Under the pieces are notes generated by a model that searched no databases, was not told the origin of the DNA, and worked only from the letters and a program-made list of their open reading frames with translations. Below, piece by piece: positions 1,064 to 53,699 of a DNA stretch of 64,000 bases. The translations under genes and the position numbers were made by a program. Location of the stretch: NCBI GenBank assembly GCA_009844885.1, contig VYAQ01000316.1:21168-85167 (forward strand). The letters run 5' to 3'. The DNA is from Gemmatimonadota bacterium. Lineage in GTDB: Bacteria > Gemmatimonadota > Gemmatimonadetes > Longimicrobiales > Gaopeijiaceae. Position 1 is the stretch's first letter. Every line of letters starts with the position of its first letter.

Positions 1064-1092
1064 AACATAGTCGATGCCGAAACGGCACACAA
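1064..1092 (-). promoter_or_regulatory. Candidate sigma-70-type promoter for rpsO (TTGTGT-17 nt-TATGTT)
   Basis: On the minus strand, TTGTGT (1092..1087), a 17-nt spacer and TATGTT (1069..1064) lie about 55 nt upstream of the rpsO ATG in the 140-nt ribF-rpsO gap. Found by eye only; the promoter consensus of this lineage is unknown. Confidence 0.25.
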
Positions 1093-1149
1093 CTGCAACT
1101 TCGGCCCCAGGTTGAGCGCGGCCTACCGGCGGAGAAACCGGACCGGATT

Positions 1150-2984: not shown

Positions 2985-3001
2985 GGCACCCGGCACAGCC
3001 T

Positions 3002-3367
3002 TCAAGGTTCGTCCGGCCCGCCGCCGGGAGGCATCACATCGCGCAGTATGGCTTCGATCCGCCGACCGTCCTCGATCGTCGTATCACGCTGAAACCGCAG
3101 CTCGGGCACGCGCCGGATCCTGAGTTCGCGCCCGAGCACCGAACGCAGAAACGGCGCCGCGCGTCCGAGCGCCGCCAGAGTGCGGTCCTGTTGATCCAGC
3201 GAGCCGTGGAGTTCGACGTACACGCGGGCCAGCCACAGGTCCTCGGTCACATCCACCCCGGTAACCGTCAGCGACCCCACGTCGGGATCGCGAAGCTGGT
3301 ACTGGATTCTGGTCGACAGTTCCCGGCGAAGCTGCTCCCCCAGGCGTGAAAGACGCCGGCCGGACAT
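3002..3367 (-). CDS. rbfA: Ribosome-binding factor A
   Basis: Internal ATG 3367: MSGRRLSRLGEQLRRELSTRIQYQLRDPDVGSLTVTGVDVTEDLWLARVYV. The size (~121 aa) and position after infB are typical. The start overlaps the stop of the upstream DUF503 gene (TGATG). Confidence 0.88.
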   Translation of the reverse strand: MSGRRLSRLGEQLRRELSTRIQYQLRDPDVGSLTVTGVDVTEDLWLARVYVELHGSLDQQDRTLAALGRAAPFLRSVLGRELRIRRVPELRFQRDTTIEDGRRIEAILRDVMPPGGGPDEP

Positions 3368-3645
3368 CAGTACCGCTCGGTCGAGTTGGCAACCACCACC
3401 GCGCCCCTCGCGCCGGCCACGCGGCGGTCGACCGACTCCAGGATCGAATCGGCCTGCGCGGCGTGCGCCGCCAGGAAGGCCACCGAGATCCGGGCTTGAT
3501 TGCGCGCGTCCTGAAGTCCCGACTCGACGACCGACACGTTCATCCGCGCGAGCCTGTCCTTGAGCGAGCGCAGGACGGACCGTTTCTGCTTCAGCGAGGA
3601 CGACCCCGGCATGGACAGATCCCAGGTAGCCACTGTGACGACCAC
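3367..3645 (-). CDS. DUF503 (YlxP-like) protein
   Basis: GTG 3645: VVVTVATWDLSMPGSSSLKQKRSVLRSLKDRLARMNVSVVESGLQDARNQARISVAFLAAH. This resembles the DUF503 pattern (hLPgshSLKeKR..l+sl.d+l+..fnvSvaE) and sits in the conserved slot between infB and rbfA. The exact start is uncertain. Confidence 0.7.
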   Translation of the reverse strand: MVVTVATWDLSMPGSSSLKQKRSVLRSLKDRLARMNVSVVESGLQDARNQARISVAFLAAHAAQADSILESVDRRVAGARGAVVVANSTERY

Positions 3646-3680
3646 CGAGGGCCGCGGGGCCGCTGCGGTCCGGGGTTCGC

Positions 3681-41200: not shown

Positions 41201-42364
41201 GGCCACCACCAGCGGCGGGGCCCACCCCCCGATTCCCGGACGCCATCTCGGCAGGGTCAGCACGGCGGCCGGCATGATCGCGATGCACAGCAGAACGACA
41301 CGCCCCAGTGTCAGCGGCACCGGGCCGAGAAGCGCGAACGTGGCCGGATCCACCAGCTCCGGCCTTCTGAACAGCCCGTCCAGGGGCAGCACGGCTGCAC
41401 CGATTCCCAGCATCGCGACCGAGTACGCGAGGTTGGCCCTCGGGACGCCGAAGGACAGGACAAGCCACACCAGCGCAGCGAGCGCGGCGACAATCCTGGC
41501 CCAGCGACCCCGCTCCTCCGCGCGCCGCACGTCCTGTGCCGGCTCGTCGATCGTGATGCTGAGGAGCGTCTCGTCGGGCCATCCGAAATCGAATACGCCC
41601 GGTCCCGATGTCCGGTCCGAGCGCGAGATCCTGATCCGCTCGCCGGTCTGTTCGCGGAAGCGGGACGAAAAATCACCCAGCCCCGAGGCGAAGAACTCCG
41701 GCAGGTCCGAACGGACCAGCACCGCCACCACCGCCGTACCGCGGGCTTCCGGGAGCATCCTGGTGAAGTACAGGTACGAGAACAGCGGCGTCCCCGCATA
41801 CGCATACCGCCCCATCTGCGCGAGAACATCCTTCGGGAGCCGGCCCTGATGACTCCCCTCCCAGGCAAGCAGCCCGCCATCGGAACCGATGACGGCCGCC
41901 GCGGTCATCCCCGTGTCCTCCAGCAGGGTCCGAAGCGAGTCCTGCAGAGGCCCGTCTCCAACGTCCACCGAGGCGGCGCGCGCCAGCCGGTCTACCGTGG
42001 CATCGCCCTGGACCACCAGCGCGTCGAACTCCGCGGCCAGCTGCTCGGCGACGCTCTCGCGCCGCTCCTCCCAGTACTGGTCCCAGCCTTCGGCAAAGCG
42101 ACGATCGGCGGCGTCTCCCAAAAAGCCGGCGACCACACCCGCGGAAAGCAGGACGACCGAGATGCCGTGGCGCCAGCCGCCCTGCTTCCCTACGGCGGCC
42201 CACGACAGGAGCAGAGCGGCGGCCGCGAGCAACCAGGTAGTGTCGAGGCGCGTCCACACGACAAGACAGAAGAGCCCCGCCCATAGAAGATGGCCGGCGG
42301 ACTCCGACCTCTCCGCGGAGGTGTTCCGGCCGGTCACGGGCTGCGGGGCTCCGGCGAGTCCCAC
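38294..42364 (-). CDS. Very large (1356 aa) membrane sensor histidine kinase, NtrY-like C-terminus (HAMP-PAS-HisKA-HATPase_c)
   Basis: The C-terminal third contains a HAMP region (LTRPIQTLQVASERVGSGNLAVHLPEDRVDEFGSVFAAFNRM), a PAS-like segment, the H-box WGEMAKQVAHEVKNPLTPIKLSVQHLRR (His codon ~38962..38960), N-box LLNLLENA, and G-boxes EDEGSGIP and GTGLGLAIAKRLV. The N-terminal ~850 aa contain at least three clusters of TM helices separated by soluble segments. GTG start at 42364. Confidence 0.85.
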   Translation of the reverse strand: MGLAGAPQPVTGRNTSAERSESAGHLLWAGLFCLVVWTRLDTTWLLAAAALLLSWAAVGKQGGWRHGISVVLLSAGVVAGFLGDAADRRFAEGWDQYWEERRESVAEQLAAEFDALVVQGDATVDRLARAASVDVGDGPLQDSLRTLLEDTGMTAAAVIGSDGGLLAWEGSHQGRLPKDVLAQMGRYAYAGTPLFSYLYFTRMLPEARGTAVVAVLVRSDLPEFFASGLGDFSSRFREQTGERIRISRSDRTSGPGVFDFGWPDETLLSITIDEPAQDVRRAEERGRWARIVAALAALVWLVLSFGVPRANLAYSVAMLGIGAAVLPLDGLFRRPELVDPATFALLGPVPLTLGRVVLLCIAIMPAAVLTLPRWRPGIGGWAPPLVVAVLFPLVLAWMEGSASPELMGTTDGRWIVFQTTVAMILAVVGSVALAWRPGAGAGGGPGFVALGLAAAGALGILVAIAVRTGPAVAPLLAALWGVPAVAVARGLGGFRPQSYLHWFCSFWLSATAVLPFTWSMRTEARMTIAEEQMRRLGVTSEPGVEPLLERFAEQIDSLDRAGAGDVEMMYQAWVGSDLAGRGTAMFLTLWSADDVPVQELRLGVKGDRPDVVVDLLPQLRSAGTGEYHDPDDLDVHHLIAVSLADGRLVTGTIPPRRTIDAPSPLGPLFASVEEEGDQEFLTLVQTPPGQDAEGAREVEWRRNQEGWRAEGVAQYPDGPYSVFYTISIPNLSVMLARATLLMALGLAVFSALWLLSVTILGFRLPARVDWRGLLTSFRARVTLTLFGFFILSNVLFGTLAYRTLAGASERTATALAERVVAQIAEAYLEEGGSMELLARRVGADLLEYREGELVGGSVDELIELGLYEGWVDPDIYDALETRQRLRATQVENLGDWRYVIAHRRLPDGDIVASPVPLRAGAAALRRRDVADLLGFAIVLGPILSLGLALFVGRALTRPIQTLQVASERVGSGNLAVHLPEDRVDEFGSVFAAFNRMVLRLDDARQELLRTTRRTEAIVEEAATGVIAVNPTGHVTVANPRAESLLATSLVTGEPVPRAGKYAAELAAWLDGYMRSGSVEADGDFRWGGKRIQVRARRIVQEGRGGGVVVNLEDVTDELRSERILAWGEMAKQVAHEVKNPLTPIKLSVQHLRRAWNDRRSDFGRILDRNVGAILGEIDRLASIARGFSRLASPGAADAGPLVAVDPGEVIRELLNLYQGGGETAIRFESELPATLPRVVARPDELKEVLLNLLENARAAMPGGGVVRIGAVEPSDGSQIVAVIVEDEGSGIPDELLPRIFEPQFSTRSTGTGLGLAIAKRLVDSWGGTVDVQSKVGRGTRVRIGLQVHDPQAEERH

Positions 42365-42410: not shown

Positions 42411-43142
42411 ATGGATCACGACTTTCCTTCGCGCAGAACGCCGTGGTTTGCGGGCAGCCTCCTCACTGCCGTCGCCGCAACCGTCCTGGCGTTCTGGGTG
42501 CCCGGCGGAGAGCTCCCGGGACAGCAGGTGGACCGGGGGCGCTTCCGACTGTTCCTGGACGGCTCGGAGATGGGAACGGAGGACTTCACGATCCAGCGGA
42601 TCGGTTCAGGAGAGGCCCAGGAGACGCTCGCACGCGGTGCAGTAAGAATGAACGATGGCCGTGTCGTCACGACGATCCTGCGGACCGTCGGTCCAGCCAT
42701 GGCGTTTTCCGAGTACGCCGCGATCGTCAGGGGCGCCGATACGCTCGAAGTTCGCGTCCTGAATGCGGGCGATCGACTGCGGCGAGTCACCGTCGCGCCA
42801 TGGGGCGAGGAGGAACAGGAGTTCAGGGCGAGCGCGCGAACGATGATCTTCGATGCCGGGGTCGCCCACCACTATTTCGTCATCGGCGGCTTCCTGGCGC
42901 GCGGGACCGCCGACATGACGCTCCACGCATTCGAACCACGATCCGAAAGGGAAGACTGGGCCGCGGATCTGGACATCGGGTCCGAGACCATCACGCTGCA
43001 GGGTGAGCAGGTGGAAGCGACCCGGGTGCGGATCGTGTCCGGCGATCAGGTCCGGACGGTGTGGTTCGACGGGAGCGGCAGGCTCGTGCGGGTGGAGGTG
43101 CCGACGGACGGCTTCGTCGCGCAAAGGGAATACGGGGGTTGA
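42411..43142 (+). CDS. Hypothetical secreted protein
   Basis: 243-aa ORF with a signal-like N-terminus (RRTPWFAGSLLTAVAATVLAFWVPG) and a beta-rich composition. No SD; ATG in an AT-rich context. Confidence 0.5.
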   Translation: MDHDFPSRRTPWFAGSLLTAVAATVLAFWVPGGELPGQQVDRGRFRLFLDGSEMGTEDFTIQRIGSGEAQETLARGAVRMNDGRVVTTILRTVGPAMAFSEYAAIVRGADTLEVRVLNAGDRLRRVTVAPWGEEEQEFRASARTMIFDAGVAHHYFVIGGFLARGTADMTLHAFEPRSEREDWAADLDIGSETITLQGEQVEATRVRIVSGDQVRTVWFDGSGRLVRVEVPTDGFVAQREYGG

Positions 43143-43254
43143 ACCAAACGGGCACCTGAGCCGTAGACCGAAACTGGAAGCGTGCCGACCGCGTATGGGG
43201 TTCGGCGCGTGCAGGATCCCTGCCAGGGGTCCCGATGAGACGAGGGAGGAGATC

Positions 43255-44784
43255 GTGGTGGACAAGCGGATGGTGTTCCGGGCCGGATGGCCGGCGTGGA
43301 TTCTCGTGGCTCTCGTGGCGGGTACCGCCTTTGCGTCGCCCTTGCGCGCGCAGGACAGGCTTTCCGCCTCGCTGACCCTGGAGGAGGCGCTCCGGGTGGC
43401 GCTGCGCAACAACCCCGGCGTGCAGGCGGTCCGGAACGACCTGCAGGTCGCAAACTGGAACCTGACCTCGGCCTATGGCTCCTGGCTCCCCTCGGCTTCG
43501 CTGAGTTCTTCCCTCTCCTGGCAGGGGGCGGGCGAACAGCGGTTCGGGAGCATCACCGCCGATCAGCTCGGCTTTCAGGATCAGCCCTCCTTCCTGTTCA
43601 GCTCGTACAACGCCGGCGTGAACTTCTCGATGGACGGGCGCAAGCTGATGGCTCCCGGCCAGGCCCGCAGATCGCGCGACGCCACGCAGGCGCAGATCCG
43701 CAGCACCGAGGCAGCGCTCCGTCTGGGGGTTACGAAGGCATACCTCGAGGTGTTGCGCCAGGGTGAGGGTCTGACGCTTGCCGAGCAGGAACTCGAGCGG
43801 GCCCGGATCAATCTGCGGCTCGCCCAGGGACGCCAGGAGGTGGGATCCGGCAACGCCATCGACGTCAGGCAGGCGGAAGTGAACGTGGGCCGCGCGGAAG
43901 TCACCCTGATCCAGTCGCGCACCGGCGTGCAGACGTCCCGAATACGGCTCCTTCAGCAGATCGGTGTGGACCTGAACGCCGAGCCGACACTGGCGACGAC
44001 GTTTTCGGTGACCCAGCCGGAATGGACGCCCGGGGATCTCTATCAGGCGGCGATCGGCAACAACCCCGATCTTCAGGCGATGCGGGCGCAGGAGGAAGCC
44101 TCCCGCTACGACGTGAGCATCGCCCGCTCATCCTACTTCCCCAGCCTGTCCGTGTCGGCGGGCTGGAGCGGTTTCACCCGGCAGGCCAGCAGCACCGCCG
44201 GCCAGGAGGCGCAGGCGATCGCCGCCGGGACGGCCAGGGTGCAGCAGTGCCTGGCGCTGAACGACCTCGTCTCACTCCTTCCGAACCCTCCGGTGCCCCA
44301 GGATTGCAGCCTCCTGGCGACTCCCGAGTCCGCGATCGAGGCCATCCGGGCCGAGAATCAGGCGTTTCCGTTCAACTTCACCAGCCAGCCGCCCTCGGTT
44401 GGCCTGCAGGTCTCGATCCCGATATTCCAGGGGCTTGGCCGCCAGAGGGAGCTGGAGAGCGCCCGTGCCCAGTTGAACGACAACCGGTTCCGTATCCGGG
44501 AGCAGGAGCTGGCCTTGCGCGCGGATATCGAGTCGAGCGTCGCGCTGGTCCGCACCGCCTACGAGAGCGCCCTTATCGAGGAGCGCAATCAGGCGCTGGC
44601 CGACGAGCAATTGCGCCTGGCGCAGGAACGATACCGCCTGGGGTTTTCCAACTTCATCGATCTGGTGGAAGCGGAGACGGTGAAGGCGCGAGCCGACCGG
44701 GAGCGTATCGTGGCGATATTCATCTATCACGACGCAGTCGCCGACCTCGAAGCGGTCGTCGGCATGCCTCTAAGGAATCCATAA
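43255..44784 (+). CDS. TolC-family outer-membrane efflux protein
   Basis: GTG 43255 lies 5 nt after GGGAGGAG (alternative ATG 43270). Signal peptide WILVALVAGTAFASPLRA-QD. OEP repeats LTLEEALRVALRNNPGVQAVRNDLQVA and LYQAAIGNNPDLQAMRAQEEA. Confidence 0.85.
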   Translation: MVDKRMVFRAGWPAWILVALVAGTAFASPLRAQDRLSASLTLEEALRVALRNNPGVQAVRNDLQVANWNLTSAYGSWLPSASLSSSLSWQGAGEQRFGSITADQLGFQDQPSFLFSSYNAGVNFSMDGRKLMAPGQARRSRDATQAQIRSTEAALRLGVTKAYLEVLRQGEGLTLAEQELERARINLRLAQGRQEVGSGNAIDVRQAEVNVGRAEVTLIQSRTGVQTSRIRLLQQIGVDLNAEPTLATTFSVTQPEWTPGDLYQAAIGNNPDLQAMRAQEEASRYDVSIARSSYFPSLSVSAGWSGFTRQASSTAGQEAQAIAAGTARVQQCLALNDLVSLLPNPPVPQDCSLLATPESAIEAIRAENQAFPFNFTSQPPSVGLQVSIPIFQGLGRQRELESARAQLNDNRFRIREQELALRADIESSVALVRTAYESALIEERNQALADEQLRLAQERYRLGFSNFIDLVEAETVKARADRERIVAIFIYHDAVADLEAVVGMPLRNP

Positions 44785-44791
44785 GAACGAC

Positions 44792-46063
44792 ATGAGAACC
44801 AGAACCAAGGTGATGATCGGGACCGGGATCGCGGTCCTGCTGGTCCTGGCCGCCGGGCTGAGCATGAACGGCCGGCGCCAACAGGGAATCGAGGTCCGGA
44901 TCGAGACCGTTGACAGGCGCGACCTGGTGGCGACCGTCACGGCCAGCGGCAACGTCCGCGCGCGCCGAAAGGTGGATATCAGTTCGGACATCTCCGCGCG
45001 AGTGGCGGAGCTGCTGGTGGACGAAGGCGAGGACGTGGAGGAAGGACAGGTGCTGCTGCGCCTCGACCCCACGCGCTACCAGGCGGCGGTCAACCGCAGC
45101 CGGGCGAATCTCAGCCAGTCACAGGCCCAGGTGGCGCAGGCACGAGCGAACTACCTGCGCGCGGAGAGGGAAGCGGAACGCCTCGACTCGCTGCACGCCC
45201 GCGAGCCGTTGCTGGTAAGCCGGCAGGAGGTCGACAACGCGCAGACCGACCTGGAAGTCCAGCGGTCCCTCCTCGAGTCTTCGGAATTCGGGGTCAACCA
45301 GGCCCGGGCCGCCCTCGAAGAGGCTAGCGACCAGCTCGCCAAGACCATCATCACCGCACCCATGGCGGGCCGGGTTACCCGTCTCAACGTCGAAGAGGGC
45401 GAGACGGTGATCGTCGGCACGATGAACAACCCGGGCAGCCTGGTGCTGACGGTATCGGATCTCTCCGTGATGGAAGTCGTCCTCGAAGTGGACGAGACCG
45501 ATGTGCCCGAGATCACCCTGGGCGATAGCGCCACAGTCGAGCTGGACGCGTTCCCGGATCTGGATTTCCCGGGGGTCGTCACCGAGATCGGCAACAGCGC
45601 CATCCGTCCGCCGTCGCAGGCCGCCGGCACGGGACAGACGCCGACCATCGACTTCGAGGTGGTCGTGACCCTCGACAGTCCGGAGGTCGAGCTGCGCCCG
45701 GATCTCTCCGCCACCGCCGAACTGATCACCGAGACACGCGTCGATCAGTTGAGCATTCCGATCATCGCGCTTACCCTGCGCGAACCGGACGCCGAGGACG
45801 ACGACGAGCGCGCGGGCGACGGCGACGGCGAAGTGCCCGATCCGATCGAGGGAGTCTTTGTGATCCGGGATGGCGAGGTCACCTTCACGCCGGTCGCGGT
45901 CGGAATCGCCGGCCAGGAGTATTTCGAGGTGATCTCCGGGCTGTCGCTCGGGGACTCGGTCGTCAGCGGACCCTATCAGGTCGTCCGAACCCTGGAGGAC
46001 GGAGATCAGGTTCGGGCGGACGAGAGCGACGATGCGGACGACACGCGGGACGAGCAGGGTTGA
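44792..46063 (+). CDS. Efflux periplasmic adaptor (HlyD/MacA-type membrane fusion protein)
   Basis: N-terminal TM helix, a coiled-coil hairpin, lipoyl/beta-barrel motifs (VDISSDISARVAELLVDEGEDVEEGQVLLRLD; ITAPMAGRVTRLNVEEGETV) and an acidic C-terminal tail. Confidence 0.88.
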   Translation: MRTRTKVMIGTGIAVLLVLAAGLSMNGRRQQGIEVRIETVDRRDLVATVTASGNVRARRKVDISSDISARVAELLVDEGEDVEEGQVLLRLDPTRYQAAVNRSRANLSQSQAQVAQARANYLRAEREAERLDSLHAREPLLVSRQEVDNAQTDLEVQRSLLESSEFGVNQARAALEEASDQLAKTIITAPMAGRVTRLNVEEGETVIVGTMNNPGSLVLTVSDLSVMEVVLEVDETDVPEITLGDSATVELDAFPDLDFPGVVTEIGNSAIRPPSQAAGTGQTPTIDFEVVVTLDSPEVELRPDLSATAELITETRVDQLSIPIIALTLREPDAEDDDERAGDGDGEVPDPIEGVFVIRDGEVTFTPVAVGIAGQEYFEVISGLSLGDSVVSGPYQVVRTLEDGDQVRADESDDADDTRDEQG

Positions 46064-46095
46064 CCGTGACACTTCGCAACAATCGAGTCGTCTGA

Positions 46096-47337
46096 ATGCA
46101 GTTCCTCGAGGGCGTGCGCCTGGCCTGGGAGCAGATCCGCACCCAGAAGCTGAAGAGCTTCTTCACCCTGCTGGGTGTGATCGTGGGCGTGATGTTCCTC
46201 ATCCTCGTGGTGAGCATCGTGGAGGGAACGGACCGCTACATCCGCGGCACCCTCACCGAAAGGGTCATGGGCGTGAACACCGTCCGGGTGGGCAGGATGC
46301 CCAGAGAGGCGGTGGATCCCTCGCCCGAGCAGTGGAGGGCATGGGCCCGTGCGCCGCGATTGACCTTCGACGACCTGGAGTATCTTCGCGACAGGATCAC
46401 GCTGTCGGCGACGATCGGAGCACAGTCCGATGCCGGAGGGGAGCTCGAATCGGACACCGGGCTCAAGGTCGAGAACGTGAACATCGTTGGTGCGTCGGCG
46501 GAGATCTTCGAGATCCGCAACTGGAATGTCGAACGCGGCCGGGCGTACACAAGGCATGAGGCCGACCAGGGCGCGCCCGTGGTTGTTCTGGGCAAGGCCA
46601 CGGCCGAGGTCCTCTTCGAAGGTCTCGATCCGGTCGGCAGGACGGTGCGGCTTCGCGGCTTTCCCTTCCGGGTCGTGGGCGTTCTGGAGGAGCAGGGATC
46701 GTTTCTGATCGTTTCCCTGGACAACCTGGCTATCGCTCCGGCGCGCTCGCCGGTTCAGAGATTCGTCAATCCGCACGGCATCGTAGACGAGATCATCATC
46801 AAGGCCGATGCCCCCGAACTGGTCCTGCCCATCCATCAGGAGACCGTCGAGGCCATGCGCCTGAGACGCCGGCTGAGACCCGCGGACCTGGACAATTTCG
46901 CCGCCGAGACTACGGAATCCTCCCTGGCCTTCTGGGACAATATCAGTCAGGTCCTGTTCCTTGCTCTGCCCGGGCTGGTCGGCATCTCGCTTGTCGTGGG
47001 CGGAATTGTGATCATGAACATCATGCTGGTATCGGTAATGGAGAGGACGCGGGAGATCGGCATTCGCAAGGCCATTGGCGCCCGTCGCGGCGATGTCCTG
47101 GTCCAGGTCCTCATCGAGAGCGCCACCCTCTCGGCCGTCGGTGCCGCGATCGGGGTGGGCATCGGAATCGGCCTGACCATCCTGCTGGGTGCGCTGACCC
47201 CCCTGCCGGCGGCCGTAGCTCCCAAGTGGATGGCCCTCGGCGTCGCACTCGGCGTCGGCGTGGGCGTGGCCTCGGGCGTGTATCCGGCCTCCCGCGCGGC
47301 CAGACTCGACCCTGTGGACGCGCTGAGGTACGAATGA
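46096..47337 (+). CDS. MacB-type ABC transporter permease (MacB_PCD + FtsX), no fused ATPase
   Basis: Starts directly with TM1 (LKSFFTLLGVIVGVMFLILVVSIVEG), followed by a large periplasmic domain and the FtsX motif ERTREIGIRKAIGARRGDVLVQVLIESA. Ends LDPVDALRYE. Confidence 0.9.
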   Translation: MQFLEGVRLAWEQIRTQKLKSFFTLLGVIVGVMFLILVVSIVEGTDRYIRGTLTERVMGVNTVRVGRMPREAVDPSPEQWRAWARAPRLTFDDLEYLRDRITLSATIGAQSDAGGELESDTGLKVENVNIVGASAEIFEIRNWNVERGRAYTRHEADQGAPVVVLGKATAEVLFEGLDPVGRTVRLRGFPFRVVGVLEEQGSFLIVSLDNLAIAPARSPVQRFVNPHGIVDEIIIKADAPELVLPIHQETVEAMRLRRRLRPADLDNFAAETTESSLAFWDNISQVLFLALPGLVGISLVVGGIVIMNIMLVSVMERTREIGIRKAIGARRGDVLVQVLIESATLSAVGAAIGVGIGIGLTILLGALTPLPAAVAPKWMALGVALGVGVGVASGVYPASRAARLDPVDALRYE

Positions 47338-48650
47338 CCCGGCGAGGCGGGAGCGGAGCCAGTGCGCCGAACGGAAAGCCGGCAGCACCCGGTCACGTGC
47401 TGAGCGAGAGCGTCCGCGTAGCCTTCGACGCACTGCGGGCCAACTGGATGCGGACGACACTGGCAGTGTTGGGTGTAGGAATCGGGGTCGGCGTCGTCGT
47501 CACCGTAGCCGCGATGGTGAGCGGAATCCGCCGCGAGGTCATGGAGATTTTCGAGGCGTCCGTGCCGGGCAGCTTCACGCTCATGCCTTTCGACTTCACC
47601 AACGTCCGGATCGCCGCCGATGGCTCGGGGCGACCGCCGTGGTGGGATCGGCCCGAGATCAGCAACCGGGAGATCCGAAGGGTTCAGACTCTGCCCGGGG
47701 TGGCGGAAGCCAACGCCAGGTATGAATTCGGTGCGACGATGCGTTATGAGTCGGACTGGGTCCGGGGAATCCAGTGGGTCGGCAACTCGAGCGGATGGGC
47801 GACTTTTACCGGAGGGGATTTCATCGCGGGCAGGGACTTCACTCCCGCCGAGGTCGCCCAGGCCAGAGGCGTGGTCGTGGTATCGGAAGAGCTGGCGGAA
47901 ACGGTCTTCGGAGAGCTGGATCCGATTGGAAAACGCGTGCGCGTCAATGCGGGCCGGAGAGCGGCAAACGAGCAGTTCACCGTAGTCGGGGTCTTCAGGC
48001 CCATCGACAATCTCTTCGGCGAGGTTGCGGGCAACTTCGCGGTGGTGCCCTTCACCGCGGCGGACAAGCGGCTCAAGGCCCGTACGCGGTGGAACTTCAT
48101 GATGGTCCAGGTCGCCCCTCGGGACGACGTGGAAACGAGCGAGGTCGAAGACCAGGTCGTTTCGGCGCTCCGCTCGATGCGGGGACTCGGACCCGCCGAC
48201 GAGAACAACTTCGCCGTCATCCGCAGCGAGCAGATCATAGACCTGTTCAACCAGTTCACGGCCATGTTCTTCATGGTGATGGTGGCGCTTTCCTCGATCG
48301 GCATGCTTGTGGGTGGGATCGGCGTGGTCGGGATCATGCTCATTTCCGTCACGGAGCGCACGCGGGAAATCGGCATCCGCAAGGCCATCGGGGCGACCCG
48401 CCGCGAGATCAAGTCGCAATTCCTGATCGAAGCGTCGCTTCTCACCGCTGCCGGGGGGGCAGCCGGGCTCCTGGTCGGATGGGGAGCCTCCGAACTGCTC
48501 GCCGCGCTCACACCCCTGCCTGCGCGGATTCCGATCTGGTCGGTGTTTGCCGCCCTCTCCGTGGCCGCCCTCACCGGGATTCTCTTCGGACTGCTCCCGG
48601 CTCTGCGTGCCTCCAAGCTGGACCCCGTCGACGCCCTCAGATACGAGTGA
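47334..48650 (+). CDS. MacB-type ABC transporter permease, second paralogue
   Basis: ATG 47334 forms an ATGA overlap with the preceding stop. Same architecture (ERTREIGIRKAIGATRREIKSQFLIEAS...LDPVDALRYE). The track ORF 47226.. is over-extended. Confidence 0.9.
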   Translation: MTRRGGSGASAPNGKPAAPGHVLSESVRVAFDALRANWMRTTLAVLGVGIGVGVVVTVAAMVSGIRREVMEIFEASVPGSFTLMPFDFTNVRIAADGSGRPPWWDRPEISNREIRRVQTLPGVAEANARYEFGATMRYESDWVRGIQWVGNSSGWATFTGGDFIAGRDFTPAEVAQARGVVVVSEELAETVFGELDPIGKRVRVNAGRRAANEQFTVVGVFRPIDNLFGEVAGNFAVVPFTAADKRLKARTRWNFMMVQVAPRDDVETSEVEDQVVSALRSMRGLGPADENNFAVIRSEQIIDLFNQFTAMFFMVMVALSSIGMLVGGIGVVGIMLISVTERTREIGIRKAIGATRREIKSQFLIEASLLTAAGGAAGLLVGWGASELLAALTPLPARIPIWSVFAALSVAALTGILFGLLPALRASKLDPVDALRYE

Positions 48651-49372
48651 GCGGGCCGCTCGATGTTCTCGCGGTCATGGCGCACCCGGATGACGCCGAG
48701 ATCTTCTGCGGCGGATCGCTGATCAAATCCGCGGACGCCGGACAGCGTACAGGCGTACTCGACCTGTCCGCCGGCGAAATGGGGTCGCGCGGCACCCGGG
48801 AGTCGCGGGCTTCAGAAGCCGCCACGGCCGCCGAGATCATGGGTCTTGCGGTACGCCGCTGCGCCGGTCTCCCCGATGCCGGGCTGTTCAACGACCTGCG
48901 CTCCCGGCACGTGGTCGCAGAGATGATCCGTGCGCTACGGCCACGAACCATCGTGACTCACTGGACCCGGGGACGTCACCCTGACCACCGTGCCGCCGCG
49001 GAACTCGCCCGGGATGCTTCCTTCCTGTCAGGGTTGCGAAACCTGCCCATCGAAGGCGAACCCTATCGTCCCCGGAAGATCGTCTATGCGCTTTCCTTCC
49101 GGGAGGATCCGGTCAAACCGACGTTCGCCGTGGACATTACGGATCAGATGGACCGCAAGATCGAGGCGCTGTCGGCCTACGGTACGCAGTTTCACGGCAA
49201 GAGCGGTATGGGCGAGGTGTTCCCGGCCGGTGACCGTCCCTTCTTCGAACAGGTCCGCAGCGTTCACGCCACCTACGGGTCGCTGATCCGCCGCCGCTAC
49301 GCCGAGATCTTCTGGACCGAAGAAATCGTCGAGAAGGAAACGCTGGGAGACCTCGGGGTCAGCACTTTCTAG
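48647..49372 (+). CDS. bshB1: PIG-L/LmbE-family N-acetylglucosaminyl deacetylase, BshB1-like
   Basis: GTG 48647 (GTGA overlap with the permease stop): LDVLAVMAHPDDAEIFCGGSLIKSADAGQRTGVLDLSAGEMGSRGT...HPDH. The AHPDD, DL-x-GE-x-G-x-x-G and HPDH motifs are typical of bacillithiol deacetylase BshB1. The 532-aa track ORF is over-extended. Confidence 0.78.
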   Translation: MSGPLDVLAVMAHPDDAEIFCGGSLIKSADAGQRTGVLDLSAGEMGSRGTRESRASEAATAAEIMGLAVRRCAGLPDAGLFNDLRSRHVVAEMIRALRPRTIVTHWTRGRHPDHRAAAELARDASFLSGLRNLPIEGEPYRPRKIVYALSFREDPVKPTFAVDITDQMDRKIEALSAYGTQFHGKSGMGEVFPAGDRPFFEQVRSVHATYGSLIRRRYAEIFWTEEIVEKETLGDLGVSTF

Positions 49373-49375
49373 CGG

Positions 49376-49396
49376 CCAGCACGGATTCGGTGCTGG
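49376..49396 (+). terminator. Small hairpin just after the bshB1 stop
   Basis: CCAGCAC-ggattcg-GTGCTGG (7-bp stem, 7-nt loop), 4 nt after TAG. No T-run follows. Confidence 0.3.
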
Positions 49397-49464
49397 ACTT
49401 CGCGCTCTGTCCGGTACGCGGGCGCTGGATCCGGCAGGGCACAACGACAAGCGGCCCATGAACG

Positions 49465-49497
49465 CCGGCGGGCTCCTCACCGTGAGGAGCCCGCCGG
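49465..49497. terminator. 33-nt perfect palindrome; likely bidirectional terminator between convergent operons
   Basis: CCGGCGGGCTCCTCAC C GTGAGGAGCCCGCCGG. The arms are 16 nt each, giving an effective stem of ~14 bp. It sits midway between the bshB1 stop (49372) and the stop of the last mini-protein gene (49545). No U-tract on either strand. Confidence 0.55.
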
Positions 49498-49544
49498 ATA
49501 CAACCGCCGTCACCGAGACGGCGTTTCCATCCCTGCCGCGCGGG

Positions 49545-49793
49545 TCACATCATCGGACCCGGTGGCGCGAACATGTCGCAGCAGTAGGGCGAGCCGACCA
49601 TACAGCGTATCGGCAGGCACAGGACCCAGGTCCCGAACTGTACCCTCCAGCGATCGTTCTCAACCGCAGCCGCAGCAGCAGCCGCGTGTTCTCCCGTCCC
49701 GGGCGCCGAGACCAGCAGTGCCGCCGCGACCGCGGCGACCTTCACGCTTCTGGCCAAAGTTGCCCCCAGGCGCTCCATCGTTTTGCCTTGCAT
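49545..49793 (-). CDS. Cys-rich secreted mini-protein, paralogue C (82 aa; C-x4-C-x6-CC)
   Basis: ATG 49793 with AAGGA 7 nt upstream: MQGKTMERLGATLARSVKVAAVAAALLVSAPGTGEHAAAAAAAVENDRWRVQFGTWVLCLPIRCMVGSPYCCDMFAPPGPMM. Signal-peptide-like N-terminus. Paralogous to the two upstream ORFs. Confidence 0.6.
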   Translation of the reverse strand: MQGKTMERLGATLARSVKVAAVAAALLVSAPGTGEHAAAAAAAVENDRWRVQFGTWVLCLPIRCMVGSPYCCDMFAPPGPMM

Positions 49794-49838
49794 GATGTCA
49801 TCCTTCTGCGGGAACAATCCCGCCGTTTGCCTTCGTGC

Positions 49839-50087
49839 TCAGAACAGGACGGGACCGCAACAGGTCGGGGCTCCGCCACATGCATAGTCGGTGCAGAACT
49901 TCCATCCGTTAAACCCGATAACCAGTTTGTGGGGCCCCGACTGCGCGCTCGCCATAGTCTCGACCAGCACGCCGCCGTCCGGTAGCGCCGGCGCGACCGC
50001 TGTCAGCGCCGCGACCAGACCCAACGCCTTCACGCCCGCGCGAATGCCCCTCGCGCGGCCTGCAACTCTTCCGAATGTCTTTTGCAT
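49839..50087 (-). CDS. Cys-rich secreted mini-protein, paralogue B (82 aa; C-x4-C-x5-CC)
   Basis: ATG 50087 with GGGAG 7 nt upstream, 17 nt after the paralogue A stop: MQKTFGRVAGRARGIRAGVKALGLVAALTAVAPALPDGGVLVETMASAQSGPHKLVIGFNGWKFCTDYACGGAPTCCGPVLF. The track start at 50150 would overlap paralogue A. Confidence 0.6.
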   Translation of the reverse strand: MQKTFGRVAGRARGIRAGVKALGLVAALTAVAPALPDGGVLVETMASAQSGPHKLVIGFNGWKFCTDYACGGAPTCCGPVLF

Positions 50088-50104
50088 TTCCTCTCTCCCT
50101 CTTG

Positions 50105-50347
50105 TTAGAAGCGCGGATTGTCGTAACAACACCAACCGTACCCCGGGCAACTACCCCAACAGATACCAATCTTCCCAAGCCAGAACACCTGTTCGCGCAC
50201 ATGGCGACTTGCCTCGGCTCCGGCCCCAACGGGCGTTGCCTGAACCCCCACAGCCGGTGCACCCACCGAGAACGCGACTGCCGCGCCCATGACCGCGGCG
50301 CGCATCAACGAGGCGCGGCGCGAAAGACGTCTTCTGCCTTTCTTCAT
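50105..50347 (-). CDS. Cys-rich secreted mini-protein, paralogue A (80 aa; C-x3-C-x5-CC)
   Basis: ATG 50347 with GGAG 7 nt upstream: MKKGRRRLSRRASLMRAAVMGAAVAFSVGAPAVGVQATPVGAGAEASRHVREQVFWLGKIGICWGSCPGYGWCCYDNPRF. Strongly basic n-region (RR-containing) followed by a hydrophobic h-region. TAA stop. Confidence 0.65.
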   Translation of the reverse strand: MKKGRRRLSRRASLMRAAVMGAAVAFSVGAPAVGVQATPVGAGAEASRHVREQVFWLGKIGICWGSCPGYGWCCYDNPRF

Positions 50348-50380
50348 TTTGGAACTCCATTCCTTTCAAGTGTCAAAGTC

Positions 50381-50409
50381 GAGTCGAGGAGCGTCCGCGT
50401 CCTCGACTC
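50381..50409 (-). promoter_or_regulatory. 10-bp stem-loop overlapping the stop codon of the thioredoxin-like gene, upstream of the mini-protein genes
   Basis: GAGTCGAGGA (50381..50390) and TCCTCGACTC (50400..50409) are exact reverse complements around a 9-nt loop. The TGA stop at 50410..50408 overlaps the 5' arm on the mRNA. Only a UUU follows the hairpin. Confidence 0.4.
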
Positions 50410-50968
50410 ATCGTACTGCGTCCATCGCAAGGCTCTGGACGAACCCTGCCAGATCGAGCGAATCCCCCGCCGAACGCCAGATCTCGGCCTCGCTTGCCGG
50501 CACCACCGCTTCGATCACCCCGGCCTCGTTCGTGATGTAGAACAGAGTCGGCTCCGCTCGTCCGAACGCTCGGACGTAGTCGGATCGGCTGCGCACGTCG
50601 ATTCTTGCCGAAATCCGCTGAGAACCGAGAAACCCCGCAACCAGATCGCGGTCCGCGTCGCCGTTCTCGCCCACCGCCACTGCGACCACCTCGAACTGCT
50701 CGCCCAACCGATACTGGAGGGCACGCACCGTCCTGGCAGGATCGGTGAGCGTGCACCCCAGGCACTCCCGGGCGTCGAATACCCACACCAGCGCCGGACC
50801 GCGTCCAGGGAACTCAAGACCCGGCATGGCGTCGCCGACGCCGGGGACACGGCCGTCCCGCGGCGAACATCCGGCAGCCATCCAGGCAAGAAGGAGCGTG
50901 GCTGCAGCCCGGTGCAGGGCGAATGCAGTCGAGCAGATGCGGCGGCGGCGTCCGACTGACCACCTCAT
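50408..50968 (-). CDS. Thioredoxin-fold CxxC protein, probable periplasmic lipoprotein (TlpA/redoxin-like)
   Basis: ATG 50968 forms an ATGA overlap with the propeller stop. MRWSVGRRRRICSTAFALHRAAATLLLAWMAAGC-SPRDG (signal plus lipobox-like Cys). Beta-strand ALVWVFDAR followed by ECLGC (CxxC). A later cis-Pro-type segment reads AEPTLFYITNEAGVIEAV. Length 186 aa. Confidence 0.7.
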   Translation of the reverse strand: MRWSVGRRRRICSTAFALHRAAATLLLAWMAAGCSPRDGRVPGVGDAMPGLEFPGRGPALVWVFDARECLGCTLTDPARTVRALQYRLGEQFEVVAVAVGENGDADRDLVAGFLGSQRISARIDVRSRSDYVRAFGRAEPTLFYITNEAGVIEAVVPASEAEIWRSAGDSLDLAGFVQSLAMDAVR

Positions 50969-52116
50969 GGCTCGAGACCACCCTTCCAACGCGCCACAAG
51001 CCACCGATTCGGCAGCACCGACGCGGGATCATCGAAGTAGAAGAGCCCCTGCTCCACGGCCAACAGCTGCGGCATGTTGGGCGCACCCAGCAGTTGCTGC
51101 CCCGTCCGGTCGATGATCAGCAGATCCCATACGGCATCCGTACCTCGCGACTGCATGGACGTCACCACCAGGTTGCCGTCATCAAGAACGGACACCCGTA
51201 CCACCTGGGTGAACCGGTCAAACGGGTCAGCGCCAGCGTCGGCATCGGGGACGGTCTCCCCGGCCCTCGGGAGGGTGCCCATGGGTCTCACCATCGGAAG
51301 AGGGATTTCCTTCAGGCGATCCCCCTGGCGGCTGAACTTGTAGAGGGTGTCCGACAGGGCCCACCCCGCCCAGATCGTATCCGCCTCCAGCGCAGCGAAG
51401 GTACCCTGAAACGTGAGTGCGTAGCCGAGGGATTCCTCCGGCACCCCCATGGGGAGAAAACTGCGCTCGAGGTCCCCCGTGCGGCGGTTCCAGATGTGCA
51501 GAAGCGTCGGTGCCCCCTCGGACTGCAGCATCCCGGTCAGCAGATACCGATCTTCGCCCAGATCCAGGGCTCCCTGCACCGTAGTGATCGGAGACATTAC
51601 GATTTCCGGATCCTCCCCGGAGGCCGGAAAAAAGGTCAGCCGGGCAAGCTGCAGGTCGGCCACCACGATGCCGCCATCCAGTGTTCGGTGGGCCGTAAGG
51701 GGGAGCCGAAACTCTCCCGGCCCCTGCCCTCGGCCACCCACAACGCGCTGCAGACGCCCGTCGCTGCCATAGACGTTGACCTGGCCCTCCATCGGCTCCG
51801 CCAGCAGGAAGGTGCCGTCCCCCCCGAGAGTGACCATCGGCTGTACTGTCATGGCCTGGTCGGTCTCTTCCAGCTCAAGCTCGAGGACCACTTCGAACGC
51901 CTCGTTGAAGGCGGCCATGTCCACCAACTCCGAAGACGCGGCGGGATCGGATGCGGGCGGAGGAGGATCGGTATCGGCCGTGTCGCAGGCCGACGCAACA
52001 AGGACCAGGAGGAGACCGAGGACCTGGCCAGGGATGGTGTAGGGCTCGCCCTTGTGGCGGGCGGCGCAACAGGATCGGGTCTTCTGGCGGTTCCGGCGGT
52101 TCTCCGGCGTGAGCAT
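50965..52116 (-). CDS. Six-bladed beta-propeller (NHL-like) lipoprotein
   Basis: ATG 52116 with GGAGGGAG 8 nt upstream. Signal plus lipobox-like GQVLGLLLVLVASAC-DTAD. Repeated blade-like segments (DGTFLLAEP..GQVNVYGSDGRLQRVVGGRGQGPGEFRLP; DGGIVVADL; DRYLLTG; DGNLVVTS; LLIIDRTGQ). The track ORF start at 52236 is over-extended. Confidence 0.72.
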   Translation of the reverse strand: MLTPENRRNRQKTRSCCAARHKGEPYTIPGQVLGLLLVLVASACDTADTDPPPPASDPAASSELVDMAAFNEAFEVVLELELEETDQAMTVQPMVTLGGDGTFLLAEPMEGQVNVYGSDGRLQRVVGGRGQGPGEFRLPLTAHRTLDGGIVVADLQLARLTFFPASGEDPEIVMSPITTVQGALDLGEDRYLLTGMLQSEGAPTLLHIWNRRTGDLERSFLPMGVPEESLGYALTFQGTFAALEADTIWAGWALSDTLYKFSRQGDRLKEIPLPMVRPMGTLPRAGETVPDADAGADPFDRFTQVVRVSVLDDGNLVVTSMQSRGTDAVWDLLIIDRTGQQLLGAPNMPQLLAVEQGLFYFDDPASVLPNRWLVARWKGGLEP

Positions 52117-52304
52117 TGTTGCCGCTCCCTCCGTTCGAGGTATGGGGTGTCGGGTCGCAACCGTCCGCACCCCTCGTGGCCTGCGGGAGAGTCCCTCAGG
52201 GGTGGGCGGGTGCGTTTCGGCGTGACCCAAGATCACCCGGCCTGTGGGTCAAGGGGATAGCTGGATGGGACAATCGACCGCAAAGCCCGTTACAGAGGTC
52301 CCGA

Positions 52305-52324
52305 AAGGGGCCCAGGCGCCCCTT
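52305..52324 (-). terminator. Possible terminator after the phosphomannomutase gene
   Basis: The minus strand reads AAGGGGC-GCCTGG-GCCCCTT followed by TCGGG. A 7-bp stem and 6-nt loop begin 4 nt after the TGA at 52331..52329. This would separate the nuo/pmm transcript from the propeller operon. Confidence 0.4.
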
Positions 52325-52328
52325 CACC

Positions 52329-53699
52329 TCAGATGTGCACCCCCTCCTGGCGGAGCCAGTCCTCCATCGTCGCCCGGATCTGCCGCAGACGCTTCGCGCT
52401 CGATGCCTCGAATCGCGCCACGATCACGGGTTGCGTGTTCGAAGCACGGATCAGACCCCATCCGTCACCGAACTGTACGCGCACACCGTCGACGGCAACC
52501 ACGTCGTAGCGGTTGCTGAAATACCGCACGGCACGCTCCACCAGCGGGAACTTGACGTCCTCGGGGACCTCCAAGCGTAGTTCCGGGGTCGCAACATAGG
52601 CGGGCAGCGCGCCGACGATCCGCGATAGTGGCCGGTCGGCGTCGGCGATCAGGGCCGCGAGTCGGCCCGCGGCATACATGGCATCGTCGAAGCCGTAGTA
52701 GTCGTCCGCAAAGCAGACGTGCCCGGAGAGTTCTCCGGCGATCAGCGCACCGGTCTCTCTCATTTTCTCCTTGATGAGCGAGTGACCGGTCTTCCACATC
52801 AGCGGCTCGCCCCCGGCCCGCGCGAACTCCTCGGGAAGGACCTGTGAACACTTCACGTCGAAGACCAGGCGTTGCCCGGTCCCTCTGCGTTGCAGGATAT
52901 CCAGGCCGAAGAGCAGGAGGAGGATGTCGCCCCGAACGACGCGCCCCCGGTCGTCCACCACGCCGATGCGGTCCGCGTCGCCGTCGAAGCCGATGCCCGC
53001 ATCGGCCTCGTGCCTTCGCACCTCGGCGATCAGGTCCTGAACATGCTCGTCGACTGTCGGGTCCGGATGGTGGTTGGGAAAGGTCCCGTCCGACTCGCAG
53101 TACAGAGGAATCACTTCCAGACCGATGGCTTCCAGCAACTGTGGCGCGACGACCGAACCCGTGCCGTTGCCGCAGTCGACGACGACCTTCAGCGGACGTG
53201 ACAACCGGAAGCGGGCGGACACGTCGGCCACGTAGGCAGGGAGTGGATCGACATCCTCGACGGACCCTGTCCCGACGGCCAGATCGCGCTCCAGAATGCG
53301 ACGCCGCAGGCGCTGGATGCCGTCGCCGTGCGTGGACGCCTTGCCCATGGTCATCTTGATGCCGTTGTACTCCGGCGGATTGTGAGAGCCGGTGATCTGT
53401 ATGGCTCCGTCCGTCCCGAACCGGTATTCGCTGAAATAGGTGACGGGGGTCGGGACCGTGCCCAGCTGAAGGACGCTGCATCCGGCTGATCTCAGGCCCC
53501 GCACCAGGCTGGCCGCCAAGCCCGGGGACGAGGGTCGGTTGTCTTCCCCCACGGCAACGCGCGGCGCCTCACCGGGCAGCCGCGAGCGCAGTTCGGAACC
53601 GTAAGCCCTGCCGACAGCGTCCGCGACCGCAGAAGTCAGATCCTCGCCCACGACGCCCCGGATGTCGTACTGCCGGAAGATGTGCTCGGACAGCTGCAT
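52329..53699 (-). CDS. Phosphomannomutase/phosphoglucomutase
   Basis: FRQYDIRGVVGEDL...IQITGSHNPPEYNGIKM (phospho-Ser loop)...GFDGDADRIGVVD (Mg site)...GELSGH. Confidence 0.9.
   Translation of the reverse strand: MQLSEHIFRQYDIRGVVGEDLTSAVADAVGRAYGSELRSRLPGEAPRVAVGEDNRPSSPGLAASLVRGLRSAGCSVLQLGTVPTPVTYFSEYRFGTDGAIQITGSHNPPEYNGIKMTMGKASTHGDGIQRLRRRILERDLAVGTGSVEDVDPLPAYVADVSARFRLSRPLKVVVDCGNGTGSVVAPQLLEAIGLEVIPLYCESDGTFPNHHPDPTVDEHVQDLIAEVRRHEADAGIGFDGDADRIGVVDDRGRVVRGDILLLLFGLDILQRRGTGQRLVFDVKCSQVLPEEFARAGGEPLMWKTGHSLIKEKMRETGALIAGELSGHVCFADDYYGFDDAMYAAGRLAALIADADRPLSRIVGALPAYVATPELRLEVPEDVKFPLVERAVRYFSNRYDVVAVDGVRVQFGDGWGLIRASNTQPVIVARFEASSAKRLRQIRATMEDWLRQEGVHI

Follow-up and report, generated by a model that had tools for sequence, protein, structure and literature searches.

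We analysed a 64-kb stretch of DNA from a Gemmatimonadota bacterium (contig VYAQ01000316.1; G+C 66.8%), which we call the window when the stretch as a whole is meant. Three small open reading frames (ORFs) on its minus strand encode Cys-rich peptides, here named A, B and C, which had been singled out in a first-pass annotation; all three are present where that annotation placed them, with the Cys layout it described. They are the last genes of a five-gene operon, in which they follow a gene for a beta-propeller protein and a gene for a thioredoxin-like (Trx-like) protein (Table 1). This operon context was absent from the first-pass annotation, and the finding is larger than first described.

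The three precursors share about 25–30% identity and a common layout: the N-terminus is basic, a hydrophobic stretch rich in A/V/L ends at a Pro, and a spacer rich in Ala/Gly/Pro leads to an aromatic stretch of alternating hydrophobic and polar residues, which is followed by a four-Cys core and a short tail. The core reads C-x3-C-x5-CC in A, C-x4-C-x5-CC in B and C-x4-C-x6-CC in C. A Shine-Dalgarno-like site lies 6–10 nt 5' of each peptide gene (GGAG, GGAGAGAGGAA and AAGGA), and the intergenic spacers measure 60 nt between the Trx-like gene and A, then 17 nt and 45 nt. For B, the TTG at 50150 given as start in the ORF-finder listing was rejected in favour of the ATG, because MQKTF or MRKTF begins all orthologues.

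Table 1 Features of the operon and of its surroundings in the window. A slash within a sequence separates the putative leader or signal part from the rest.
Feature	Position	Strand	Description
Propeller, first gene	50965..52116	minus	383 aa, NHL-type, six-bladed, probable lipoprotein signal (…LVASAC/DTAD)
Trx-like, second gene	50408..50968	minus	186 aa, thioredoxin-fold, lipobox (…WMAAGC/SPRD), CLGC motif
Peptide A precursor	50105..50347	minus	80 aa; MKKGRRRLSRRASLMRAAVMGAAVAFSVGAP…AEA/SRHVREQVFWLGKIGICWGSCPGYGWCCYDNPRF
Peptide B precursor	49839..50087	minus	82 aa, ATG at 50087 (MQKTF); …VAPALPDGGVLVETMASA/QSGPHKLVIGFNGWKFCTDYACGGAPTCCGPVLF
Peptide C precursor	49545..49793	minus	82 aa, start MQGKTM; …SAPGTGEHAAAAAAA/VENDRWRVQFGTWVLCLPIRCMVGSPYCCDMFAPPGPMM
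GC-rich hairpin	49467..49495		13-bp perfect stem between peptide C end and convergent BshB1; probable bidirectional terminator closing the operon
BshB1	48650-49372	plus	bacillithiol biosynthesis deacetylase; 209 bits against TIGR04001, above cut-off
Pump region	43003-48650	plus	two permeases at 46096-48650
Large ORF	38294-42364	minus	about 1356 aa; probable large sensor kinase
Fourth Cys-pattern match	30557	minus	Arg-rich stretch (CSTGCRGSRASRCCRRGRRTECRS; CSTGCRGSRASRCC…)

The comparative data show that A, B and C are real paralogues of an undescribed small-peptide family, in which a hydrophobic and aromatic, beta-hairpin-like stretch is followed by C-x3-4-C-x4-6-CC. The six frames of the window contain the Cys-only pattern C.{3,4}C.{4,7}CC four times, where Markov-1 random windows would lead one to expect 0.33, an enrichment of about 12-fold, so that the motif is not the artefact of random high-GC sequence that the first-pass annotation had asked to be checked for; three of the four matches are A, B and C. 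The fourth is taken as a putative off-frame chance match. Within the window a family hidden Markov model likewise matches only A (E 2.6e-36), B (2.9e-30) and C (5.5e-29), all other ORFs scoring E > 3. The regular expression offered at first, [FIVL]G..[WI]..C.{3,4}C.{5,6}CC, matches none of the three peptides, and the Gly and Trp just ahead of Cys1 that it treated as shared do not hold fixed positions; what is fixed is a hydrophobic residue before Cys1 and the Cys framework itself.

A profile of the three peptides retrieved 27 protein clusters, all of them A, B or C orthologues from Gemmatimonadota metagenome-assembled genomes (MAGs) with the four Cys invariant, and when 1.84 billion representative proteins were searched exhaustively by profile, about 26 further, more distant peptides (75–98 aa) with the same layout were obtained. 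The overall identity among homologues drops to about 20% while the four Cys and the loop lengths persist, and in an alignment of 44 sequences only M1, the Pro closing the hydrophobic region and the four Cys are invariant, which bears out the proposed paralogy around a conserved Cys core. Across 90 distinct cores the first loop always has 3–4 residues and the second always 4–6, as expected if the spacing were kept in homologues; exactly four Cys are found in 89 of these cores, Cys1 follows I, L, V, F or M in 86, and an aromatic residue directly precedes CC in 46. Searches of Pfam, NCBIfam, PADLOC and, by sequence profile, PDB gave no meaningful match for the peptides, and the homologues named in source databases are called "hypothetical proteins".

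The ratio of nonsynonymous to synonymous substitution rates (dN/dS; medians over nine three-copy species) is 0.35 for the leader and 0.39 for the core of A, 0.54 and 0.79 for B, and 0.45 and 0.57 for C. The peptide genes thus appear, from these ratios, to be under purifying selection that is comparatively relaxed or partly diversifying. Sequence conservation together with dN/dS below 1 indicates that A, B and C are translated genes. Were they instead chance ORFs in high-GC DNA, without a product, one could point to their G+C content at third codon positions (0.65–0.76, against 0.8–0.9 in neighbouring genes) and to the long alternative ORFs that overlap them on the other strand; nevertheless this explanation is in effect excluded by the invariance of the Cys in over 90 distinct sequences from several genomic contexts, by the dN/dS values, by the Shine-Dalgarno sites and by the motif enrichment. 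Invariant-Cys frameworks can therefore retrieve genuine small genes from high-GC sequence crowded with spurious ORFs. The triplication was held from the start to be old and maintained, and this stands: each of A, B and C forms an orthologous group in all nine three-copy species loci, at a median between-species dS of 0.4–1.0, and therefore the triplication predates those species, deeper-branching relatives having one or two peptide copies.

The protein encoded by the first gene of the operon was compared by sequence with PDB entries, where a profile of five orthologues matches the NHL domains of TRIM2, TRIM3, TRIM71 and Thin (E 3e-18 to 5e-12, in 2–5 stretches) and the single sequence reaches PDB NHL domains at E 1e-8. 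The profile match to the TRIM proteins places the propeller among NHL-repeat proteins; a weak match to 4raa, a "putative exported protein", was also obtained. PF17170/DUF5128, which covers exported propellers of Bacteroides, gives weak, recurrent profile matches to the propeller and to paralogues of it: at 15.7 bits the window protein is below the cut-off of 22.9, several homologues carry the DUF5128 label as "weak", and one paralogue at the locus L029 passes with 23.9 bits. We found 113 clusters of propeller homologues. An alignment of 57 sequences, down to 37% identity, keeps GxGPGEF, E84, E110, D154, R159, H207, W209, D246, W249, D256 and Y259, and the sole conserved Cys is that of the lipobox, Cys44. 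In the window the stop codon of the propeller gene and the start codon of the Trx-like gene overlap by 4 nt (ATGA), and a 4-nt overlap is also seen in loci L003, L006 and L027, which suggests that the two proteins are made in matched amounts.

In the Trx-like protein, C69 and C72 of the CLGC motif are invariant among 49 homologues, the motif reading [EAQR]-C-L-G-C. Its AlphaFold2 model has a mean predicted local distance difference test score (pLDDT) of 85, rising above 90 over residues 41–180, and places CLGC between a strand (59–65) and a helix (75–91). Foldseek returned 30 matches to PDB at E <= 1e-3 for this model, all with the Trx fold; the best are YkuV (2b5x, E 1.4e-5), ResA, SdbA, StoA and DsbE, and the top ones have a probability of 1.00 and TM-scores of 0.5–0.63 on the target. 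We assign the Trx fold because CLGC is invariant, the model is confident and its Foldseek neighbours agree. At the sequence level the matches are weak (Thioredoxin_2 at E 0.014, with 16 bits against a cut-off of 27 and in only one of five members; StoA at E 0.8 with a PDB profile), and an NCBIfam scan of the protein gave no match. The protein has the fold and the CxxC of the TlpA/ResA class. Like TlpA, ResA, DsbE, StoA and SdbA it combines a predicted Trx fold with extra elements, a CxxC ahead of the first helix and membrane anchoring, while it differs from them in its 11–23% identity, its scores below Pfam thresholds, its unusual CLGC dipeptide and the lack of a Trp before the first Cys. Known members of the class act in cytochrome c maturation, CuA assembly, sporulation or general secretome folding, and are not known to serve a linked peptide family. 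The Trx-like family studied here comprises 81 clusters, none labelled by Pfam, and was found only in the module of peptide and propeller genes. PADLOC defence models matched none of the five operon proteins. As the propeller has no conserved Cys beyond that of the lipobox, the four-Cys peptides are the only obvious thiol substrate in the operon.

The nature of the Trx-like protein bears on one way of reading the peptides, namely as periplasmic metal-binding peptides, for example for Cu, whose four Cys would be kept reduced by the TlpA-like lipoprotein. CxxxC followed by CC is reminiscent of thiolate metal sites, in structure the Trx-like protein is closest to the reductive ResA/TlpA/DsbE class, a subset of the peptides carries Tat-like motifs typical of cofactor-loaded cargo, and MerC lies upstream in one locus. 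Moreover, TlpA reduces ScoI and CoxB (cited in PMC6107167). We nevertheless consider metal binding quite unlikely: conservation is limited to the four Cys, with no conserved His or Met ligands, the strongly hydrophobic and aromatic core diverges fast, the module is not consistently accompanied by a metal transporter or chaperone in its different contexts, and the twin arginine (RR) is absent from most members.

Close relatives of the propeller occur in 15 species-representative genomes, 11 labelled Longimicrobiales and four labelled Gemmatimonadota, Gemmatimonadetes or Gemmatimonadaceae, and all 15 carry the propeller, the Trx-like protein and 1–3 peptides within a synteny running from the nuo genes and a phosphoglucomutase-family gene (PGM) to BshB1 and MacB. 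At least 15 species of uncultured Longimicrobiales have kept the undescribed peptide family. Within that lineage partners and bystanders cannot be told apart by synteny alone; however, five contexts lack nuo, PGM, BshB1 and MacB. The gene order is peptide, propeller, Trx-like, peptide in L027/L028; two peptides, propeller, Trx-like in L030; and peptide, propeller, Trx-like in L037 and L039. The fifth, L029, a second locus in one Longimicrobiales genome, has a peptide and an apparently frameshifted propeller, with no Trx-like gene. In a further locus, L031, the upstream genes differ. Because the module recurs where its surroundings differ, the peptide or peptides, the propeller and the Trx-like protein form one unit, and their three-part gene linkage is obligate. 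Seven of nine metagenome loci have the module, of the other two one being a contig that ends at the Trx-like start and the other L040, where no Trx-like or peptide gene follows the propeller. Marine sponges are the source of eight of the nine, which belong to the metagenomes LXNJ (Petrosia ficiformis) and LXNI (Sarcotragus foetidus), and among the Longimicrobiales there are recognised symbionts of sponges and corals (PMC10581226).

Evolution is faster in the module than in its neighbours, and fastest of all in the peptides. At four progressively more distant loci (L003, L001, L007 and L006), identity to the window is 94, 83, 78 and 67% for PGM and 95, 88, 78 and 68% for BshB1, against 92, 86, 61 and 48% for the propeller, 89, 74, 53 and 38% for the Trx-like protein, and 61–83, 60–82, 36–38 and 25–34% for the peptides. 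The dN/dS values follow a similar order, with 0.16 for PGM, 0.13 for BshB1, 0.22 for the propeller, 0.35 for the Trx-like protein and 0.39–0.79 for the peptide cores.

Fast evolution and variable copy number of the peptides might suggest a toxin with its immunity protein, the peptides being bacteriocins and the propeller lipoprotein protecting the producer by immunity or sequestration. Lipoprotein immunity proteins exist for other bacteriocins, and the peptide-propeller pair at L029 adjoins membrane proteases of the CPBP/Rce1-like family, which is often linked to bacteriocin immunity. This arrangement is however very unlikely here, since one propeller accompanies up to three peptides at about 25–30% identity, no export system is conserved with the module, and the translational coupling of the propeller is with the Trx-like gene rather than with peptide genes. 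That a single propeller and a single Trx-like protein serve one to three divergent peptides fits recognition of a scaffold or leader better than one-to-one immunity.

The N-terminal halves of the peptides were proposed in the first-pass annotation to be export leaders, and their build, as read from the sequence, is consistent with signal peptides: a basic n-region is followed by an A/V/L-rich h-region of 12–15 residues (Kyte-Doolittle maximum 2.1–2.6) that ends in the invariant, helix-breaking Pro. These leaders are at least as conserved as the cores (dN 0.22–0.31 against 0.33–0.34). The accompanying suggestion of a twin-arginine motif holds for one subfamily, as A orthologues carry a good RR-A-W-L-M (RRAWLMR); B and C have no RR. 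RR followed by any residue and two hydrophobic ones is found in only 23 of 93 members, and one homologue (P0028) has a Tat-like RRCWLK. There are two candidate cleavage sites. One follows P-x-x-G, present right after the h-region in 74 of 93 family members, and the other, about 15 residues further on, lies between the last Ala and the Gln of A-x-A-Q. The ASA-Q site of B, noted early on, turns out to be the most conserved non-Cys feature, [AGSV]-x-A-Q occurring 15–18 residues before Cys1 in 36 of 90 cores, and a cut there would leave B as a 34-residue peptide beginning with Gln. Cleavage by signal peptidase I at this site is nonetheless uncertain, because it lies about 15 residues past the end of the h-region. 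The Q-rule reported as specific to Bacteroidetes, and not shared by the whole FCB group (PMC5837995), was rejected as an explanation of A-x-A-Q for that reason, and the motif is therefore a feature of the peptide family.

The remote position of the best A-x-A site would suit membrane-tethered mini-domains, in which the N-terminus stays uncleaved and the Cys-rich hairpin sits at the periplasmic face on a linker of about 20 residues, as a small subunit or regulator of a complex of propeller and Trx-like lipoproteins, instead of being released as a peptide. Between the invariant Pro and the core runs a long spacer of low complexity that is predicted to be disordered (34–51 in B), and both partners are predicted lipoproteins, so that all parts would lie at the membrane surface. 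We regard tethering as unlikely, given that the h-regions are short and moderately hydrophobic, more like signal peptides than transmembrane segments, that P-x-x-G after the h-region fits a signal peptidase I site with Gly at -1, and that a structural subunit would not be expected at one to three copies, nor at 25% identity while its partner stays at 48%.

The reading we prefer is that the peptides are exported, stapled by disulfides on a propeller platform with the help of a Trx-like protein dedicated to them, and active outside the cell or in the periplasm, and we give it about an even chance of being right. The precursors would cross the inner membrane by means of their N-terminal signal, through the Sec pathway for most and with a Tat-like motif in the A subfamily only, and the leader would be removed either just after P-x-x-G or at A-x-A-Q, yielding a product of about 34–45 residues. 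The Trx-like lipoprotein would then form or shuffle two disulfides among the four invariant Cys, while the coupled propeller lipoprotein would bind the conserved scaffold as a substrate platform, the pair acting like a split version of the fused Trx-like and NHL proteins NHLRC2 and SOQ1. The stapled peptides may finally act outside the cytoplasm, in competition, signalling or host interaction within the sponge holobiont; their fast divergence and variable copy number fit such roles better than housekeeping.

Several points weigh against this proposal. Export, cleavage, disulfides and activity of the peptides are all predicted, and the peptides are not markedly cationic. In its AlphaFold2 model peptide B has a helix (6–30), a disordered segment (34–51) and two strands (54–59 and 62–69), and the resulting hairpin agrees with the sequence pattern, yet at a pLDDT of 54, which is of low confidence, the model is unreliable and only suggestive. 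The distance of A-x-A-Q from the h-region would also allow the N-terminus to remain as an uncleaved membrane anchor and linker. TlpA/ResA-type proteins are usually reductants and not oxidants, so that a redox step in either direction is conceivable here. Across the contexts compared, no gene for a transporter, a protease or immunity is kept alongside the module, an unusual situation for a bacteriocin. A PDB profile search with the propeller gave no match to NHLRC2 at E <= 1, so that the two are not close by sequence. Finally, the propeller keeps polar residues (E, E, D, R, H, D, D, Y) that could belong to an enzyme active site and not to a passive binding face.

This last point leads to a different pathway, of the kind that makes peptides that are ribosomally synthesised and post-translationally modified (RiPPs), in which the propeller would be an enzyme that adds a Cys-aromatic or other cross-link, or cuts the leader at A-x-A-Q, and the Trx-like protein would supply or remove electrons. 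Such a pathway could account for the conservation of E84, E110, D154, R159, H207, D246, D256 and Y259 across the 57 propellers, for a leader more conserved than the core, as in RiPPs, and for the aromatic residue that directly precedes CC in about half of the cores (46 of 90). To our knowledge, however, no NHL propeller acts as a RiPP enzyme, and the only catalytic NHL-type domain we know of is PAL, which uses three His for Zn, whereas a single His (H207) is invariant in the propeller. No core residue other than Cys is invariant as a modification site, and Pfam scans of the neighbours revealed no radical SAM, MNIO, YcaO or similar gene beside the module. RiPP precursors with Sec or lipoprotein signals are now known (PMC13056109), but on balance we hold a RiPP-like pathway to be rather unlikely. 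Among such products, the lipidated macrocyclic peptides of Chryseobacterium have small signal-bearing precursors, conserved Cys and extracytoplasmic maturation (PMC13056109), as would the peptides described here. The Cys framework and the partner proteins of the present module differ from theirs and from those of bufferins, and no MNIO/DUF692 or partner gene of these systems lies near it. Bufferins, which are made by MNIO enzymes, are likewise signal-bearing Cys-peptide RiPPs.

Two enzymatic roles for module proteins were considered and rejected. PAL has three His as Zn ligands and a catalytic Tyr and Arg; an amidating lyase of this type does not agree with the invariance of H207 alone in the 57 propeller sequences, nor with peptides that are not Gly-terminated. 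In the MADH light chain and the QHNDH gamma subunit a conserved Trp becomes a quinone cofactor and MauG or radical SAM genes are found nearby; a small subunit of this kind does not fit a core without an invariant Trp, or a neighbourhood in which Pfam detected no such maturation genes. Cone-snail toxins of framework XVI (C-C-CC) have the same four-Cys order with a terminal vicinal pair and a similar size, but they are of animal origin and unrelated, with a resemblance of pattern only and no sequence similarity.

By analogy, the module resembles known secreted Cys-stapled peptides with a dedicated oxidoreductase, to which an NHL propeller would be a new addition. One of the closest parallels is the glycocin sublancin of Bacillus subtilis SPbeta, whose operon (sunA-sunT-bdbA-sunS-bdbB) includes dedicated thiol-disulfide oxidoreductases that form the disulfides of the peptide (PMC4336743). 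Both operons combine a small Cys-rich peptide with its own oxidoreductase, and the size range and the two-disulfide logic, here predicted, are shared. In contrast, sublancin has a double-glycine leader cut by a protease-domain ABC transporter, an S-glycosyltransferase and a separate immunity gene, whereas the present module has signal-peptide-type N-termini, a TlpA/ResA-like lipoprotein oxidoreductase and an obligate beta-propeller partner. Pfam scans of the neighbours found no C39-ABC transporter or S-glycosyltransferase in the window operon or in the other contexts checked, and no immunity gene is linked to the module.

The combination of a Trx-like domain with a six-bladed NHL propeller is also found, in fused form, in NHLRC2 of animals and some bacteria and in SOQ1 of the plant thylakoid lumen; the lumenal Trx-like and NHL domains of SOQ1 are described as acting on a protein client. 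The cleft between the two domains of NHLRC2 contains the Cys motif and was proposed by the authors of that work to be a partner-binding site, and bacterial homologues of NHLRC2 have no conserved operon partner (PMC6107167), whereas here a candidate peptide substrate is genetically linked. The two proteins of the present module are separate lipoproteins encoded by overlapping genes, which amounts to a Rosetta-stone-type relation: a Trx-NHL fusion would not fit the length of any of the 113 propeller or 81 Trx-like clusters. The motifs differ as well, CC(I/V)NC in NHLRC2 (PMC6107167) against CLGC here, and NHLRC2 was not among the matches when the propeller and the Trx-like protein were searched against PDB sequences. 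We advance only tentatively, as possible more than probable, the idea that the propeller and the Trx-like protein are a split Trx-NHL oxidoreductase whose natural, encoded substrates are the linked four-Cys peptides.

Were the split reading true, this would be the first Trx-like and NHL combination with an identifiable client. NHLRC2, which is essential and is mutated in FINCA disease, has no known substrate, and the module would then provide a tractable bacterial model for the action of this domain pair on peptides, as well as a new class of periplasm-matured symbiont peptides specific to sponge-associated Gemmatimonadota. The pairing ties the combination to a concrete candidate substrate, which opens it to tests in a simple heterologous host. 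Provided that they are released and stapled by disulfides, the peptides would represent a new scaffold among the products of sponge symbionts; bacteria associated with sponges are widely mined for bioactive compounds.

Downstream of peptide C the operon is probably closed by a GC-rich hairpin. The minus-strand RNA of 49440-49544, which contains this hairpin and a second stem, folds with -65 kcal/mol (z = -4.9), none of 200 shuffled sequences being as stable. A consensus terminator scan did not list the hairpin because it has no T-tract, and it is likely a bidirectional terminator of a type that such scans miss in high-GC genomes. A consensus promoter scan found no promoter, and the two terminator-like matches obtained equal the chance expectation. 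The Rfam scan of 49000-52600 gave a single sub-threshold match, to a eukaryotic internal ribosome entry site, which was judged spurious.

Upstream of the operon and on the same strand lie the PGM gene and nuoG-to-nuoN-type genes, and on the other strand BshB1 and a MacB-type pump converge on it. As the match to BshB1 is above cut-off, the organism probably uses bacillithiol. BshB1 converges on the peptide operon wherever the synteny is kept and does not occur in the other module contexts; the pump is likewise kept beside the module in Longimicrobiales and not elsewhere. In related loci the pump region holds an outer-membrane factor, a membrane-fusion protein and two MacB_PCD/FtsX permeases, of which the Pfam scan within the window covered only the two permeases; no ABC ATPase gene was seen among the neighbours inspected around the pump. 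MacAB-TolC exports the enterotoxin STII, which prompted the idea that the pump exports the peptides, and such a link in the main lineage is possible though unsupported. The pump, BshB1, PGM and nuo were rejected as parts of the module, which occurs without them in five other contexts. The large ORF is kept beside the pump genes in all syntenic loci, and its assignment as a probable sensor kinase comes from the HAMP, HisKA and HATPase domains of its counterparts in related loci.

Propeller paralogues without peptides exist at L026 and L040. At L026 (CBDBPR01, contig 4, 1-9400) at least five distant DUF5128-like paralogues are accompanied by an HTH/Xre-type gene, with no Trx-like or peptide gene. 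L027 and L028 (GCA_009836845.1 and GCA_026705045.1) are MAG contigs labelled Gammaproteobacteria, with 63% G+C and an adjoining phage-type integrase and transposase-type HTH_21 gene fragment, and their placement reflects either horizontal transfer among sponge symbionts or a binning error. An ORF of 136 aa on the plus strand of L027 (4301-4711), 2 kb upstream of the module, weakly matches nitrile hydratase alpha and a family of RiPP precursors ("Frankia_peptide"), and may from these matches be an NHLP-type RiPP precursor. About 130 nt upstream of the first peptide gene of the L027 module lies a gene for a 213-aa membrane protein with HELGH and a weak match to Peptidase_M50. This protease-like protein, the CPBP/Rce1-like proteins of L029 and a Peptidase_M78-like protein at L039 were considered as parts of the module and rejected, as none recurs across contexts. 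At L029 (genome OZ244037.1) a tandemly duplicated cassette (505-5985) lies directly upstream of the family peptide and propeller; its first copy encodes a protein of 142 aa, a membrane protease of the CPBP/Rce1-like family, a secreted Cys-containing protein of 101 aa and a DUF5128 propeller of 384 aa, and its second copy only the first three of these, which suggests that the pairing of a small secreted Cys peptide with a propeller may be a more general theme.

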